Shown piece by piece: positions 37,756-48,368 of a DNA stretch of 64,000 bases; the first letter of the stretch is position 1; each line of letters starts with the position of its first letter. A program made the translations under genes and the position numbers. The notes under the pieces were generated by a model. It searched no databases. It saw nothing but the letters and a program-made list of their open reading frames with translations, and was not told the DNA's origin. The stretch lies in assembly GCF_058153355.1 (NCBI RefSeq), contig NZ_CM177019.1, one strand, 5' to 3'.

Positions 37756-37875
37756 GTCAGCCTCGTAAAAATATCAATCCAATAGAATTATGCTGTGTAT
37801 AGTCTAAGCGACAGACAAAAATAAGATGAATGAGTTTTCTATAAACTTATGCTAGTTATACTAAACAATAAAAAG

Positions 37876-38142
37876 TCACATATCATCAGCTGTGTATCGC
37901 AACACGATTTCCAGTGTTTTTCTAATCACATCAGCTTTGAGAATATCATTCGTTGTTTCCAGGGAGTGTATCAGACTTAAGATAATATTTTTATTATTAA
38001 CATTATCCCCTGAAAGCATTAAATTGGTCACCGCCTGCCCTAATACAGCAGACTCTTCTTCTAACAAATTCCCCGAACTGCGAAAGTAACTTGATAACGC
38101 CTTATCAGTTATTGCGTTATGAATAGTAGTATCTTCAAGCAT
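37876..38142 (-). CDS. ariR: Biofilm/acid-resistance connector AriR (YmgB)
   Basis: 88-aa product ...[34 protein letters not shown]. Confidence 0.88.
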
Positions 38143-38170
38143 GGTAACCTCTCATCTTACTTATGAAATT

Positions 38171-38443
38171 TTAATGTATTCTGTTTATTTTCTTACCATT
38201 GAATATACTTTTATTGTCAGCTATTGCTGCTCTTCTGTTAGGCCCTCCTGTATCACTATTGCTAAAATCACGAATTATGCTATCAATTAAATCTCGTCGG
38301 AAGGCATTTTGTTCAACAGATTTCATTACGAGTAATTGCTTAATAAGAGTCTGCAACGAAAAATTTATCTTCATGCGTAATATCTGGAGCACCGCCTGGC
38401 CAGTAATTTCATGTTTTATACTTTCATTATCAGATGTCTTCAT
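38171..38443 (-). CDS. ymgA: Two-component connector YmgA
   Basis: 90-aa ORF at the conserved position between ycgZ and ariR. Confidence 0.85.
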   Translation of the reverse strand: MKTSDNESIKHEITGQAVLQILRMKINFSLQTLIKQLLVMKSVEQNAFRRDLIDSIIRDFSNSDTGGPNRRAAIADNKSIFNGKKINRIH

Positions 38444-38485
38444 AACGACTTCATAGTTAATCTGTCAAATAATCAGGCTGTCACA

Positions 38486-38722
38486 TTATTCAAAAAGCAA
38501 CCCAATTAGTGAATTGTAGTGTTTCTGTTCCTCTTCCCCTGTCGCTTGCTCCAGTCGACAAAGAAGTTTGGTACAAAGCGACTTTCGACTCAGATTACGT
38601 CCATCTTTCAAAATTTCAGTCACAATTTCCCCGAGGGTTTCCTGCTGAGTAGGCAAGTTAGCTTTTGCAAAGTAACGAGTAATTGCCCCCGCAGAATCTG
38701 AAATCACTGAATTTTGCTGCAT
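38486..38722 (-). CDS. ycgZ: Two-component connector YcgZ
   Basis: 78-aa ORF, first gene of the BluR-regulated cluster. Confidence 0.85.
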   Translation of the reverse strand: MQQNSVISDSAGAITRYFAKANLPTQQETLGEIVTEILKDGRNLSRKSLCTKLLCRLEQATGEEEQKHYNSLIGLLFE

Positions 38723-40451: not shown

Positions 40452-41183
40452 GTGGCTTATTACAGCATTGGTGATGTTGCTGAACGTTGCGGGATTAATC
40501 CTGTCACTCTCCGGGCCTGGCAACGCCGCTACGGTTTGTTAAAACCACAGCGCAGTGAAGGCGGACACCGACTCTTTGATGAAGAAGACATACAACGCAT
40601 CGAAGAGATCAAGCGTTGGATAAGTAATGGCGTCCCTGTAGGCAAAGTTAAAGCATTACTGGAAACCACCAGCCAGGATACGGAAGATGACTGGAGCCGC
40701 CTGCAAGAAGAGATGATGTCAATTCTTCGTATGGCTAATCCTGCCAAACTACGCGCGAGAATTATTTCACTGGGTCGAGAGTACCCGGTAGATCAATTGA
40801 TTAATCATGTTTACCTTCCTGTTCGTCAGCGTCTCGTGCTTGATCACAACACCTCCCGCATTATGAGCAGTATATTTGACGGCGCATTAATTGAATACGC
40901 AGCAGCCTCACTTTTCGAAATGCGCCGTAAGCCCGGTAAAGAAGCCATTCTAATGGCGTGGAATGTTGAAGAGAGAGCACGATTGTGGCTGGAAGCATGG
41001 CGTTTATCATTGTCAGGATGGCATATTTCTGTCCTTGCTGATCCCATTGAATCGCCGCGCCCGGAACTGTTCCCGACGCAAACATTGATTGTCTGGACAG
41101 GCATGGCACCAACGAGAAGGCAAAACGAACTTTTACAACACTGGGGTGAGCAAGGTTATAACGTCATCTTTCATGCCCCCTAA
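40452..41183 (+). CDS. bluR: MerR-family repressor BluR (YcgE)
   Basis: 243-aa product with N-terminal MerR HTH ([31 protein letters not shown]). Confidence 0.9.
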
Positions 41184-41403: not shown

Positions 41404-41808
41404 ATGGATCAGGTCGTTGTTTTTCAAAAGATGTTTGAAAAAGTGAGAAAAGAGCAAAACTTTTCCTGGTTTTATTCAGAGTTAAAACATCACCGTATTG
41501 TGCATTACATTTATTATCTGGCTACGGATAACATCAGAATTATTACTCACGATGAAACAGTTTTGTTATTAAGAGGAAACCGTAGCCTGTTAAAAGTCAG
41601 TACAACCAAAAACCCAGAAAAAATTAAAGAGGCGGCATTGCTTCATATTTCTGGGAACTCTACATTTTGGGAGTATTGTACAACACTGGCAAGTGCTGGC
41701 GTTTTCCGCTGGGTAACCGATGTTAATAACAATAAACGCGGCTACTACGCTATTGATAATACGCTGTTGTATGTTGAAGATGTGGAAAATAACAAGCCAT
41801 TAATCTAG
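41404..41808 (+). CDS. ycgX: DUF1398-family protein YcgX
   Basis: 134-aa ORF, AT-rich, at the conserved position beside bluR. Confidence 0.75.
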   Translation: MDQVVVFQKMFEKVRKEQNFSWFYSELKHHRIVHYIYYLATDNIRIITHDETVLLLRGNRSLLKVSTTKNPEKIKEAALLHISGNSTFWEYCTTLASAGVFRWVTDVNNNKRGYYAIDNTLLYVEDVENNKPLI

Positions 41809-41996
41809 CAAAGTTTTAACACATAAGAGATCTATCATAATTCAGTAAAATAACAAAAAAGAGGACTTTCTATGACTTATCAGAACTCCCTTTTTATTGT
41901 TATCCATAATTGTTCAGCCGACCAATTCTATAAATCTGACATTTGACACGCCTCCTTTGCCGTTCTGATACGTTACTTTTCTTGCCGTTATCAAAC

Positions 41997-42075
41997 CCAC
42001 AAATACAACGGGCGTGTTATATGCCCGTTCAATACTTAATAGGTATAGCGTTAACATATTCTTGATAGCATGTAC
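41997..42075. repeat. Diverged copy of the icd 3' end and terminator region (left att-like repeat)
   Basis: About 75 bp (acaaatacaacgggcgtgttatatgcccgtt...catattcttgat) aligns at roughly 80% identity, in direct orientation, with 48315..48386 (icd terminator hairpin and last codons). Confidence 0.7.
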
Positions 42076-42644
42076 TGCATACCTCCTGCCTTAGAATTAT
42101 CTCCGGCTAACTCCACCAAACATGGCTGTACACAGCCAGATAAGAACGCTTGCGCGCATCTGGATATCATACCGCTGCTGGAACTGTTTCTTAATCATCC
42201 TACCTTATTCGACCTATTCGTTACTGGCCATTATGAAGGACGCAAAGTAAGCGCTTTTTATGCGTTTTGGCCTAGTTATTATCACGTTACCTTAATATTA
42301 TCAGGAACGAGTTAACGCTGCTCATAACGGTCAAACCGATACTATAAAGCCCAATAATTGAAACCTTTTCATCATGTCAGGAAGATAGTCATCCTTATGA
42401 TCTTTATATAAAAAAGCCAACCATGGGGTTGGCAAAGTGGCACAAACCAGCATAAAAGCTATGCTTTGTTTACAAATCTTCTTTGAATTAAATATATATC
42501 GTCCTGACTAAACAGAACTAAAACGGAATGAATTATTTAATCATATTACTAAATTTCATTTTGTTTAGACTCTGTTGAGATCCCTTGTTTTAAATTTCAT
42601 TTAGATAAAATTCTTAATTAAATCCTTGGGAGTCAATTATCTCT

Positions 42645-42899
42645 ATGCAAAGTCAAGGAATGTACTTTGAAATGAACCTATACGCATATTTGAATAAATA
42701 TGATAGTCGGCTTTCAGAAGAAAAACTTGCAATTGATAAGGCAGTTAGAGATTTATATCTTTGCAACGAACACGTGGATAACAAGAGCATTATACTGAAA
42801 TTGCTCTCATTTTTATCATCTGCTGATGACATTGTTGAAAAAGATATTATCAGGAATGCTTTGGAAGTGGTGCTTCTTTTTACATTAGACGATATTTAA
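42645..42899 (+). CDS. AriR/YmgB-family paralog
   Basis: 84-aa product ...DNKSIILKLLSFLSSADDIVEKDIIRNALEVVLLFTLDDI parallels the AriR C-terminus [39 protein letters not shown]. Confidence 0.65.
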   Translation: MQSQGMYFEMNLYAYLNKYDSRLSEEKLAIDKAVRDLYLCNEHVDNKSIILKLLSFLSSADDIVEKDIIRNALEVVLLFTLDDI

Positions 42900-43147
42900 G
42901 TCATCTCAGGAGTTTTAATACACGAAGAGTGCCCGGATACTAGCGATTATATTCATATTTAATTATTAGTGCGGGGAAAGAGATTATGCATTGGCATATT
43001 TCTCTAACGTCCGCGATAGAAAAACAACTTTAAATATAAATAAAGAACAAACCACCTTTGCATTCAACCTCATCTGAGCTGACTATAGTACAAATTATAT
43101 TGATATTCTTTATCAACATCATTGGAACAGAAGAATAAGGCGAAGAA

Positions 43148-43471
43148 ATGAAGTGTATAGTAATTGATACTGTAATACAACCTTCGTGTGGTATATATTT
43201 TTCAGTCATATGGAGCGATATAAAAATGATCATTTGGTATCGTTCAAATATCTTTCTCCCACCTGGCAGCATATTTACAGTTATTAAGTCAGGTATTATA
43301 CTCGAGGATAAAGAATATCCGATCAGTATTTTTAACGTGGCGCTATTCAACAAAAATTTATGGAATTTAATCAAAAATAGTCAAGAGTGTCCTACAGAAT
43401 CAAACAAAATTACGAATAAATGCCTGCATAAGCATTGCATTATGCAAATATGTCCACATGGTCTCAAGTAA
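43148..43471 (+). CDS. iraM: Anti-adaptor protein IraM (RpoS stabiliser)
   Basis: 107-aa product [22 protein letters not shown]...[16 protein letters not shown]. Confidence 0.85.
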
Positions 43472-43522
43472 TGGGGGTTATTTAACCTTCCCTATATGCT
43501 ATAGATAAATCTACCAAAAACT

Positions 43523-43540
43523 GCCCCTTCGTAGAGGGGC
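43523..43540 (+). terminator. Terminator-like hairpin downstream of iraM
   Basis: Perfect hairpin gccccttc-gt-agaggggc followed by a T-rich stretch; the palindrome could act on either strand. Confidence 0.45.
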
Positions 43541-44067
43541 TCTATGATTTTGTTTTATTTGAAGGCATGGTGCTGAATGTACTCGTTGAATCCAGATTCA
43601 ACACCTGAAGCTACACTTAACCCATAATACTTGTTTCTGGTTCCTCTACCGAGTGGTCAAACAATGATATGTATGTGACGTCAGAGTTTATTTTTTTAGT
43701 GTTTAATGCTATTAATTTAACGTAGTTACCTATCTTTTTTCTACCTTCTGAACTAACCTTAGGTTTCAACGTATCCGGCAGGAGGGGCTATCCCCAATCT
43801 TAAATTTTGCTGCCCGATTTGCTCAAGCCAAAGTTTTAATTTTACAACCTATAAACCTGAGTTAAATCAACCTCATGGTGCTGTCTGTTCCCGCTGTGGA
43901 ACAAGACTCACTGCAACATCTTGCATTCCTAAACTTCGCAGAAGGCGATGGGCAAAAACTGTACTGTAATGTTATTTCGATGTCTCTTATGGTAAATAGG
44001 AGGCGTCGAGGCTAAGTGAGTAGCCTGCTTGCTTCTCAAGCCTGGATACTATCAGCATTCACGTCAG

Positions 44068-44107
44068 ATGAAATGATGATATTTCGCGTAAGAAAGAGGC
44101 ATTTTTT
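44068..44107. repeat. 40-bp repeat, copy 2 (between iraM and the trkG-like gene)
   Basis: gatgaaatgatgatatttcgcgtaagaaagaggcattttt; 38/40 identical to copy 1. Confidence 0.7.
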
Positions 44108-44205
44108 TATCAACTTCACATCGGAGATGGTAATAATCCTATGGGTCCAGTCCATATGAGGGGGTCAACATACTATAAAATTCACAATCATAAATTAACT
44201 ATATA

Positions 44206-45663
44206 TCAAGAACGCCAAAAAAATCCTGAAAATAGTATAATAACAGGGTAAATTTCAAGTCGACCAAGAATCATAGCAATACACATGAGATATTTTGCAA
44301 TATCATTAAGAACACCGAATGAGGATGCGGTAGCCCCAAAACCCAGCCCCATATTATTAATGCATGCAGCGACTGTCGCAAATGATGTAAGGAAATCATA
44401 TCCCATACCGTTTAGCACCAGTATAAAAAACACTGTAAAGAAAGTATAAAGAAAAAAGAAACTCCATACAGACCTCATTACGCGGTCTGTAACAATCTTC
44501 CCTCCTACATTTACACTAAGCAATGCTCTGGGATGAGAAAGCTGATTTATTTCGTGTTTACTTTGTTTAAAAAGTATAAGAAATCTAAGTGATTTAATTC
44601 CGCCGCACGTTGAGCCTATACATCCCCCAAAAAAACTTGACAGCAGCAAAAAAACTATCGTATGTGTGGGCCAGTTTGAATAATCCTGCGTAGCTAAACC
44701 ATTATCAGTGAGCATGGAGCTAGCAAGAAAAAACGAATGAACAACACTTCCAGTTAAGTCATACATACCTATATGCCAGACCTGGAAAGAGGTAACAATA
44801 ATAACACCTGAAGCTATTAACAAAAAGAAACGAAGTTCAACATCTGTGAGTAAGGGTTTTATTGTTTTCCTGCTTATAACAACATACCAAAGAGTGAAGT
44901 TGAAAGCCGATAACAGAGAAAAAGAGCCCGCCACCAGTTCAATCAAATAATTATTGAAATAGCCGATACTCTCACTATGAGTTGAAAAACCGCCAAGAGA
45001 AACTGTAGAAAGTCCATGACAAATAGCATCAAACAAAGGCATTCCTGCAAGTCGATAACAAACAATACAAGCAATGCCTAATAAAGAATAAGTTATCCAA
45101 AGTGTCCGCGACGTATCAGCCAAGCGTGGAGTCAGTTTGTCATCCTTAAATGGCCCTGGCATTTCTGACTGATAAAGTTTTGCACCACCAATACCCAATA
45201 ATGGCAACACAGCAACTGCCAGAACAATAACCCCTAAACCGCCGATAAAATTTAATTGTGACCGGTAGAACAAATATGCCCGAGATAATGAACTGACATC
45301 ATCAATTACTGTTGCTCCTGTTGTTGTTATTCCGGAAACCCCTTCAAACAGCGCGTCAGCAAACGTTAAATTAAGCTCTGAATCAATCCATAATGGAAAT
45401 GCGCTAATAATAGAAAATAAAATCCAAAACATTACAATTATAATAAACCCATCACGGGTGCGTAATTGAATGCCAGATTTTTTAGTGGTATACCACGCTC
45501 CGCCACCAATACAAAAAAATATAACAAAAGTAATAAAAAAAACGAACAAGCTTTTTTCTTTATAAAACAATGCTACAACCATTGGTGGTAACATTGAAAG
45601 ACTATAGAGCCAGACCAAGAACCCACACATATGAGTTACAACTCTTACATGAGATGTATTCAT
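44206..45663 (-). CDS. trkG: TrkH/TrkG-family K+ uptake membrane protein (TrkG-like, horizontally acquired copy)
   Basis: 485-aa product from Met 7 (MNTSHVRVVTHMCGFL...); strong similarity to TrkH core (GATVIDD...FYRSQLNFIGGLGVIVLAVAVLPLLGIGGAKLYQSEMPGPFKDDKLTPRLADTSRTLW); AT-rich codon usage. Confidence 0.85.
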   Translation of the reverse strand: MNTSHVRVVTHMCGFLVWLYSLSMLPPMVVALFYKEKSLFVFFITFVIFFCIGGGAWYTTKKSGIQLRTRDGFIIIVMFWILFSIISAFPLWIDSELNLTFADALFEGVSGITTTGATVIDDVSSLSRAYLFYRSQLNFIGGLGVIVLAVAVLPLLGIGGAKLYQSEMPGPFKDDKLTPRLADTSRTLWITYSLLGIACIVCYRLAGMPLFDAICHGLSTVSLGGFSTHSESIGYFNNYLIELVAGSFSLLSAFNFTLWYVVISRKTIKPLLTDVELRFFLLIASGVIIVTSFQVWHIGMYDLTGSVVHSFFLASSMLTDNGLATQDYSNWPTHTIVFLLLSSFFGGCIGSTCGGIKSLRFLILFKQSKHEINQLSHPRALLSVNVGGKIVTDRVMRSVWSFFFLYTFFTVFFILVLNGMGYDFLTSFATVAACINNMGLGFGATASSFGVLNDIAKYLMCIAMILGRLEIYPVIILFSGFFWRS

Positions 45664-46099
45664 ATCCAAATGTTCTTTCAATTATAACCACCTTACTGCA
45701 ATGTCATGATTATACTGTATAAATTTTAACTCTTCTTAGATCTTACTTCACTGGTCCTTATGAAACAATCAGCAAAATGAATCTTATTATAACACTGTTC
45801 GGTTATGTATTGTTGAGCCTTCCCGCTGGGCCTGCATCATTACAAGTCGCTCCCTATGGGGCTTTGTCGAATAAATAATTTTTCGGTAAGTATCCCCTGA
45901 GCAGGTTGTATCTTCAGGCAGTATGAACACTTTCTGGCATACCTACCTTCGTCATTATGTTCAGCGTATGCACCATGACCAAAGCCTCTGCAACCGGCCG
46001 ATCATAATCTAGCAACATCAGAGAACCTCAGAATAACTGTTTTACCCTGTACATTGCCGTTTCCGCTATTGAGCAACGATTGTAATCTTTTGTCCATTT

Positions 46100-46330
46100 T
46101 CACCGGGAATTACCCTCGGTCAATCGCTGATACGCGACTGCACAGTTACGGTCGGCATACTCACCGGACCAGTAACCCGCTCCTTTTTGGGGTGGGATGA
46201 GCGCGCTGATTTTCACACGGCGCAGCTGCTCGTAACAGAGCCGAGAGGCGTAAACTCCGTCTGCTGCTGTCCTGATTTTTTGATGGGTTTGCCGGATTAA
46301 TCCGGCTACACCTCTACATCCGTTACGCTG
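46100..46330 (-). pseudogene. Short transposase-like / mobile-element ORF remnant
   Basis: Minus-strand frame gives an uninterrupted ~74-codon stretch ...RLCYEQLRRVKISALIPPQKGAGYWSGEYADRNCAVAYQRLTEGNSR* with no start context or flanking gene; GC-rich relative to its AT-rich neighbours. Confidence 0.35.
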
Positions 46331-46545
46331 AATGCTGAGGTCGCCCTTGGGAAGAAGGCATTGCTGACTTATACCAATCCGAAATCACCTCCTCGTGCAA
46401 CCAGACAGGGAGGGGCCTCGGTTGATAAGAGCTCTGTTATTGATGTGCCAGTTGGTGATTCTAACTTTTGCTTTGTAACGGGACGAGCCGTGTTGGCAGA
46501 TGATGTGTGGTCTGATCCTTAAACTCAGTAAAAGTACGATTTATT

Positions 46546-46584
46546 CAAAAAAGCCCCTCCACTATGATTTCGATTTAAGGGGCT
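46546..46584 (-). terminator. Intrinsic terminator of the 458-aa gene
   Basis: On the minus strand: hairpin agcccc...ggggct followed by a run of six U, about 30 nt after the stop. Confidence 0.6.
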
Positions 46585-46615
46585 GATGATTATGTAACGC
46601 GAATTTACCGGATCC

Positions 46616-48001
<1,386 letters not shown>

Positions 48002-48313
48002 TCAGGGGGGTTGATATTCCGGATCATGCCGTGTTTGCCCACGGCTCCCCCTGGAGAGCTGCAGACCTGTTTATTTAACTCGCACAGCGCCGGGGCCTGT
48101 CAGCAAACAGGGAGCATAACCGTCGTGCCATTAAACGCCAGACGGGAGATCATTATTATTTTATTAATACAGATTCGTTGCATTCCGGTCTTTACCGCAG
48201 TTTAAAAGAAAAGAGAATAGGGACTTAGGCAGTAGAGCAGTCATTGGACAGACCACACTACCCCAAACTAGCAGGGGAGTTTTGATAAAATTTTGATAAC
48301 CGTTAGCATGCTA

Positions 48314-48346
48314 ACAAAAAACAACGGGCGTGTTATACGCCCGTTT
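48314..48346 (-). terminator. Intrinsic terminator of icd
   Basis: Minus-strand hairpin aacgggcgtataacacgcccgtt followed by a U-run, directly after the icd stop. Confidence 0.75.
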
Positions 48347-48368
48347 CAATATTTAACACATGTAGTGA

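Follow-up and report, generated by a model that had tools for sequence, protein, structure and literature searches.

A YmgB/AriR-family gene between ycgX and iraM in rare Escherichia coli genomes, and a putative PhoP-activated promoter upstream of it

A small gene of the YmgB/AriR family lies between ycgX and iraM in the 64,000-nucleotide stretch of DNA analyzed here (contig NZ_CM177019.1 of RefSeq assembly GCF_058153355.1; hereafter the window), as an open reading frame at 42645..42899 (+) with an ATG start, an 84-residue product and a match to Pfam PF10798. In E. coli, AriR/YmgB and IraM are both small connectors through which stress signals reach the Rcs, ppGpp and RpoS networks. On balance we favor the reading that this paralog specifies a four-helix AriR-like protein of a subfamily restricted to E. 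coli, that it is an old resident of its locus, and that it is the first gene of a PhoP-activated transcript shared with iraM. A broader proposal, which we put forward only tentatively, is that the ancestral iraM locus was a PhoP-activated operon of two connectors, relaying the PhoQ signal to RpoS as well as to Rcs and/or SpoT-ppGpp, and that a deletion of ∼441 bp in K-12 and most other strains reduced the first of these genes to a relic.

The window is a segment of an E. coli chromosome; over 41800-43500 it shares 99.4% identity with strain 2013C-4282. The gene order is pdeG, ymgC-ariR-ymgA-ycgZ (− strand), bluF, bluR, ycgX, the paralog, iraM, trkG, an IS5 fragment, an ORF of 458 codons, and icd. 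The canonical ycgZ-ymgA-ariR-ymgC operon occupies 37507..38722 (−), and its ariR gene (ymgB; 37876..38142 (−), located from the ORF list and the RefSeq annotation of the 99.4%-identical genome) served as the comparator throughout. Upstream of the paralog is ycgX (41404..41808 (+)), a DUF1398 gene with matches to Pfam PF07166 and PHROG 413. Downstream is a divergent type A allele of iraM (43148..43471 (+)), coding for the anti-adapter protein IraM; it scores 143.6 bits against NCBIfam NF007393 (cut-off 121 bits) and is 81% identical to K-12 iraM at the DNA level (dS 0.64), while its protein is 72–74% identical to the commonest E. coli IraM clusters. A first-pass annotation made from the window had described the paralog as lying in AT-rich DNA next to iraM, some 4.5 kb away from the canonical operon and separate from it. 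The coordinates bear out this description, and the GC content of 42500-42999 is 0.316.

Membership of the paralog in the YmgB/AriR family is secure. The 84-codon reading frame was recovered at exactly the coordinates first given for it, together with both of the peptide stretches quoted at that time, and the family resemblance proposed from the pattern of the C-terminal helix holds in pairwise as well as profile comparisons. By BLASTP the product aligns without gaps to the AriR encoded at 37876..38142 (−) of the window, with 29 identities over 73 residues (40%; 64% positives; E = 2e-17), and the Pfam YmgB profile PF10798 matches at 52.4 bits (gathering score 22.3 bits; E = 4.8e-14) along positions 2-59 of the 59-position profile; no second Pfam domain in the protein exceeds its threshold. 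Among PDB sequences searched with phmmer, YmgB (2OXL) is the sole significant match (E = 5.7e-11). Alignments to YmgA and YcgZ, which had been proposed along with that to AriR, were also run and gave no significant similarity. The ATG at 42645 is conserved in both alleles of the gene and in the K-12 relic described below, although the annotated start varies among RefSeq records, giving products of 75, 84 or 86 residues. An antisense ORF of 59 codons at 42653..42832 was taken to be spurious, the Pfam match and the purifying selection both belonging to the + frame.

The family itself is small: when 1.84 billion cluster representatives were searched exhaustively with HMMER, 43 clusters were recovered at E ≤0.001, and the 10 named clusters that we looked up are all from the Enterobacterales (Enterobacter, Cedecea, Kosakonia, Pantoea, Erwinia, Winslowiella). 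The paralog makes up its own 50%-identity cluster, with all other full-length relatives no more than 45% identical, and in a neighbor-joining tree it forms a separate deep branch outside Escherichia AriR, being no nearer to Escherichia AriR than it is to the Enterobacter or Cedecea proteins. A recent duplication of ariR, which we considered as an origin of the gene, is therefore ruled out, the identity to AriR being 35–40%.

Structure prediction agrees with the family assignment. An AlphaFold2 model of the single chain, generated from a 37-sequence family alignment, has a pLDDT of 86.7 and contains four helices, at residues 3-18, 24-39, 46-59 and 63-78. The top Foldseek match to this model is 2OXL_A, with an rmsd of 0.6 Å over 57 columns, a probability of 1.00 and a TM score of 0.90 normalised to the target; the next match has E = 1.5, and 2OXL is the only one of the 50 matches listed that has a low E-value. 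All four invariant and ten near-invariant columns of the family alignment are retained in the paralog (E26, N46, K47, I50, L53, L57, D67, R70, L73, E74, V76, T80, D82 and D83), and R70 aligns with R74 of AriR. Lee et al. 2007, the depositors of the YmgB structure 2OXL, reportedly compared YmgB with Hha. The Hha/YmoA helical modulators differ from the paralog in having no sequence similarity to it, and none of their structures is among the 50 PDB matches listed by Foldseek for the model.

The paralog is present in 29 of 5,426 complete E. coli genomes, in one copy each and always on the chromosome. There are two alleles: type A, which is that of the window, is found in 18 genomes with at least 98% nucleotide identity, and type B, found in 11 genomes, is ∼80% identical to type A in nucleotide sequence and 73% identical in protein sequence. 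Both alleles are represented among the four carriers examined in detail, and in all four the gene sits between ycgX and iraM; type A genomes have the trkG island between iraM and icd, whereas type B genomes are without it. A comparison of types A and B gives dN/dS values of 0.15–0.17 at dS 0.8–0.9, near those of iraM, and judged from these rates the paralog is under strong purifying selection across a long divergence. The gene is frameshifted in one carrier, and a frameshifted product is also present in databases; by annotation, from which the reading frames were taken, 28 of the 29 copies carry a single family-named product. Absence from more than 99% of complete genomes and the one frameshifted carrier show that the gene is dispensable. 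When 100,044 GTDB species-representative genomes were scanned for peptide patterns specific to the paralog, no orthologue was found in other species, although a divergent one would be missed by such patterns, and the close relatives named in word-indexed and exhaustive protein searches are only from Escherichia, nearly all of them E. coli.

Alignments show that most E. coli genomes carry one shared deletion of the paralog, with a segment of ∼441 bp (about 42680..43120 of the window) missing from the K-12-type haplotype. We compared six gene-lacking genomes picked across the range of similarity in a DNA search (K-12, IAI1, strain 165, GON1437, AHB6 and RS571), and the deletion junction is identical in all of them. 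A sensitive DNA search adds 3,896 further genomes that match the upstream part of the query alone, from 42508 to at most ∼42682, at ∼70–80% identity. In K-12-type genomes the upstream region is retained together with the initial ∼34 nt of the ORF (ATGCAAAATCAAGAAATAAACATCCTAATGAACC), which is to say 11 codons, after which the sequence resumes ∼30 nt before the iraM ATG. Since ycgX and iraM of K-12 are 97–99% identical to those of the type B carriers, K-12 has a type B haplotype from which ∼441 bp are missing; and because the divergent type A haplotype has the paralog at the same place, the gene must be older than the divergence of A from B, which makes the deletion the derived state.

We note that the relic in the gene-lacking genomes is itself a reading frame of 22 codons (in K-12, MQNQEINILMNHIKYRGIRHNK), the TGA stop of which overlaps the iraM ATG (ATGA). 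It lies at 2653..2721 of the K-12 MG1655 extract and at 2649..2717 of the IAI1 extract, and it is intact in all six genomes despite several amino-acid changes. The relic ORF is unannotated in the RefSeq records examined, and its peptide is absent from the protein collection and the papers that were searched; YmgK and YmgL, the small proteins detected in the iraM-ycgX interval of K-12, are distinct from the relic. It may couple iraM translation to the upstream reading frame.

Upstream of the paralog is a candidate promoter of the PhoP-activated type. A PhoP-box-like direct repeat, TGTTTA-GACTC-TGTTGA (TGTTTAGACTCTGTTGA; 42562..42578 (+)), is located 67 nt upstream of the ATG and has one mismatch to KGTTTA-N5-KGTTTA, a pattern that is matched five times in the window against 1.37 expected, such that a single match is only suggestive. 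Type B alleles bear the same repeat, and K-12-type genomes have TGTTTA-N5-(C/T)ATTGA at the homologous place. Twelve nucleotides downstream of the box is a −10-like hexamer read from the sequence, TAAATT (42591..42596 (+)), shared without change by type B, K-12 and IAI1, and this arrangement implies a putative transcription start near 42603-42605. As a positive control for the box search, the window contains the promoter of phoP, which lies with phoPQ ∼11 kb downstream of the paralog; at 54218..54252 it consists of a perfect PhoP box (GGTTTATTTAATGTTTA; 54218..54234), 12 nt (CCCCCATAACGA) and CATAAT. The spacing between box and −10 upstream of the paralog is thus the same as in the phoP promoter, with the box taking the place of a −35. 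A Shine-Dalgarno-like GGGAG (42628..42632 (+)) is positioned 12 nt before the ATG, a distance longer than optimal that makes it weak evidence.

Conservation between haplotypes A and B is highest in this same interval among non-coding stretches. Identity is 89–91% from the box to the −10, compared with 80–81% in the ORF, ∼50% in the leader and 60–63% in the spacer between the paralog and iraM, a pattern such as a functional promoter would be expected to leave. The block recurs in K-12-type genomes, albeit with a weaker second half-site, directly upstream of the relic and iraM.

The 248-nt spacer between the paralog and iraM (42900..43147 (+)) was examined by scanning, by comparison with Rfam and by predicted folding. 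Simple scans revealed no terminator-like or promoter-like site on the + strand of the spacer, its predicted fold contains no hairpin followed by a U-run, and no RNA element in the spacer or its flanks scores above the Rfam threshold, although the spacer could hide a promoter or a Rho-dependent terminator missed by simple scans. Past the putative promoter, the first terminator-like hairpin on the + strand is at 43523..43540 (GCCCCTTCGTAGAGGGGC, followed by a T-rich tail) and starts 52 nt after the iraM stop codon. We also observed a sub-threshold Rfam match to the STnc100 sRNA at 43511..43636 (−) (22.9 bits, with a gathering score of 47; E 0.024), which overlaps the iraM terminator region.

Transcription of iraM in E. 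coli is PhoQ/PhoP-dependent (PMC5740661; PMC10948607), with an induction of ∼20-fold that is lost when PhoQ is inactive (PMC5740661). From the conserved box and −10, the PhoP dependence of iraM and the terminator-free spacer, we infer a common transcript of the paralog and iraM that starts at a PhoP-activated promoter. Sequence homology and geometry are what lead us to equate this site with the known PhoP-dependent promoter of iraM.

In the scheme that we favor, the paralog would encode a small cytoplasmic four-helix YmgB/AriR protein of a distinct, E. coli-only subfamily, and the paralog followed by iraM would make up a two-gene transcript begun at a PhoP-activated promoter ∼40 nt upstream of the paralog ATG, with the homologous promoter region lying directly upstream of iraM in K-12. 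Conditions that activate PhoQ/PhoP, such as low Mg2+, mild acid or an osmotic upshift, would then cause the two small connectors to be made together. IraM blocks RssB and thereby stabilises RpoS; the AriR-like protein, by analogy with AriR and in keeping with the retention of R70, might bind a partner such as RcsC, at its cytoplasmic part, or SpoT, at its regulatory region. YmgB activates the Rcs phosphorelay without a need for RcsF or for the periplasmic domain of RcsC (PMC11709261), and in a role separate from that in Rcs it binds SpoT through R74 and raises ppGpp (Guiraud et al. 2023, PMC10704370). The paralog probably acts in a like manner, by binding a signalling protein as AriR does, although its partners may differ from those of AriR because the identity between the two is only 35–40%.

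The resemblance to K-12 AriR/YmgB (2OXL; PF10798) extends to the Pfam family, the helical fold, 40% identity over 73 residues and the C-terminal motif D-x-x-R-x-x-L-E-x-V-x-x-x-T-x-D-D, which is conserved in the paralog. The two nevertheless differ in the N-terminal helix (MQSQGMYFEMNLYAYLNKYD in the paralog) and in genetic setting, in that the paralog stands alone, outside the BluR-controlled ycgZ-ymgA-ariR-ymgC operon, and sits behind a PhoP-box-like promoter and ahead of iraM; it is also restricted to ∼0.5% of complete E. coli genomes. It thus lacks the context of an AriR orthologue, which belongs to the operon adjoining bluF/bluR and is de-repressed through BluR, and counterparts of YcgZ and YmgA, the reported partners of AriR, are absent from the paralog locus. 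The closer parallel in regulation may be to IraM and the PhoP-controlled connectors (SafA, and IraP in Salmonella), since the paralog is small, is placed upstream of iraM and is probably responsive to PhoQ/PhoP. It would suit the logic of small connectors that join one signalling system to another, although it has no sequence relation to IraM (Pfam PF11183), and both PhoP control and a target are attributed to it here by inference. The first-pass annotation raised the idea that the gene could rewire RpoS, Rcs or acid-resistance signalling; a more specific link offered by the sequence is its location between a PhoP-box-like promoter and iraM.

The first-pass annotation regarded the paralog as borne by a mobile element, and we have considered whether it is remnant cargo that arrived with a prophage or an island and is able to move between strains. 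We think this improbable. It is true that the DNA is AT-rich, that ycgX and iraM have PHROG families (PHROG 413 and PHROG 4407, respectively), that the trkG/IS5-fragment island is found just downstream in type A genomes, and that iraL, the iraM relative of CFT073, is next to a DUF1398 gene within a lambdoid prophage; homologues of ycgX in prophages are noted by Tschowri et al. 2012 (PMC3509220), who suggest a phage-associated acquisition of the region. However, no PHROGs family was found for the paralog, and tblastn searches yielded no copies of it in 50,697 phage records and none on plasmids. The 14 matches in the plasmid collection are to ariR itself, in non-mobilizable records, several of which are 4.8–4.9 Mb in length and therefore look like chromosomes filed as plasmids. 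Each carrier has a single copy at a fixed position, integrases, transposases and repeats are absent at the flanks of the paralog itself, and the gene of type B carriers is not accompanied by the trkG island. Carriage by a mobile element is thus not borne out, with the gene present both with and without the island, true plasmid and phage copies lacking, and the same ycgX-paralog-iraM position occupied in both haplotypes despite a dS of ∼0.8–0.9 between them. By these comparisons the paralog has long resided at the ycgX-iraM locus and shows no hallmarks of mobility, and it is rather the whole neighborhood for which a phage ancestry is plausible, because ycgX and iraM have phage relatives and iraL is prophage-borne. 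We are a little more skeptical still of the notion that the paralog is a decaying or non-functional ORF that is intact by chance in a few lineages. Its loss from the great majority of complete genomes (>99%), the frameshift in one carrier and a frameshifted product in databases would fit such a history, but dN/dS values of 0.15–0.17 over a dS of 0.8–0.9, the retention of all of the family-conserved residues, a confident YmgB-like model and the annotation of 28 of the 29 copies as a single family-named product all speak against it.

Somewhat doubtful, albeit the most credible of the alternatives, is that the paralog is functional and AriR-like with a regulation of its own, being transcribed apart from iraM and not under PhoP, and backing up AriR, or acting as a variant of it, in the control of Rcs, biofilm or acid resistance. 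A spacer of 248 nt leaves room for this, iraM has its own Shine-Dalgarno-like AAGG, and our promoter and terminator scans are crude; furthermore, strain PT62 has lost ycgZ-ymgABC yet keeps the paralog, which fits partial redundancy. Weighing in the other direction, the sole conserved non-coding block between the haplotypes is the PhoP-box/−10 just upstream of the gene, the interval from the paralog to iraM has no predicted terminator, and K-12-type genomes have the same block directly upstream of an iraM gene that is PhoQ/PhoP-dependent. We therefore prefer the shared PhoP-activated transcript described above.

The gene has been noticed by annotation pipelines. Its RefSeq (PGAP) product name is 'biofilm development regulator YmgB/AriR family protein' in all of the complete genomes that carry it, and the exact 84-residue sequence occurs on 328 public contigs with the UniRef label "connector protein AriR". 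Full-text literature searches found no published YmgB-family gene adjoining iraM, and a term search of Tschowri et al. 2012 (PMC3509220), an account of how the region evolved, returned no mention of a second YmgB-family gene. The paralog is thus already known as a database entry and appears to be unstudied, and what is new is where it lies, downstream of the probable PhoP promoter for iraM, together with the relic of it in the K-12 iraM leader. Such a position, between a likely PhoP-controlled promoter and iraM, suggests that the PhoQ/PhoP system formerly had a second output besides IraM, which the carriers retain. If this is correct, the leader of K-12 iraM is a fossil of a lost gene, which would explain the origin of that leader, and PhoP has an additional output in the rare carriers. 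In practical terms the impact is modest, the paralog being rare, dispensable and already annotated, and the regulatory model is a proposal.

Several other features of the region were observed. The interval from ycgX through the paralog to iraM (41404..43471) is a very divergent haplotype, with dS of 0.5–0.9 relative to K-12 or type B, whereas the adjacent bluR (40452..41183) shows ordinary E. coli divergence (dS ∼0.05), and there is therefore a recombination boundary between bluR and ycgX. At least three iraM-type lineages exist in E. coli, counting the prophage-borne iraL. A segment of ∼217 bp at window positions ∼42040..42300 is missing from K-12 and most other complete genomes and is single-copy in 16 type A genomes; it is unannotated, contains a mechanical ORF of 81 codons (42070..42315), and over 80 nt weakly resembles a transposase gene of the IS3 family in strain SMS-3-5. 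The island between iraM and icd (43600..48368) contains trkG (44206..45681 (−)), an IS5-family transposase fragment and the 458-codon ORF (46616..47992 (−)), which has only weak PHROG matches. In K-12, trkG is presumably located in the Rac prophage. In type B carriers and in IAI1, iraM directly adjoins icd, and K-12 has genes of prophage e14 (mcrA, pinE) at this place.

In PT62, the loss of the canonical operon is due to an IS1-associated deletion that removed ycgZ-ymgABC and the 5′ part of bluF (PT62 extract 1..3814), and the paralog is the only YmgB-family gene left at that locus. LP5-1 probably shares this deletion, its record length and gene coordinates being identical. Elsewhere in the window, 29162..33967 (−) is an uninterrupted ORF of 1,601 codons with the look of an autotransporter adhesin, the PT62 counterpart of which is annotated as a truncated ypjA/EhaD-like pseudogene.
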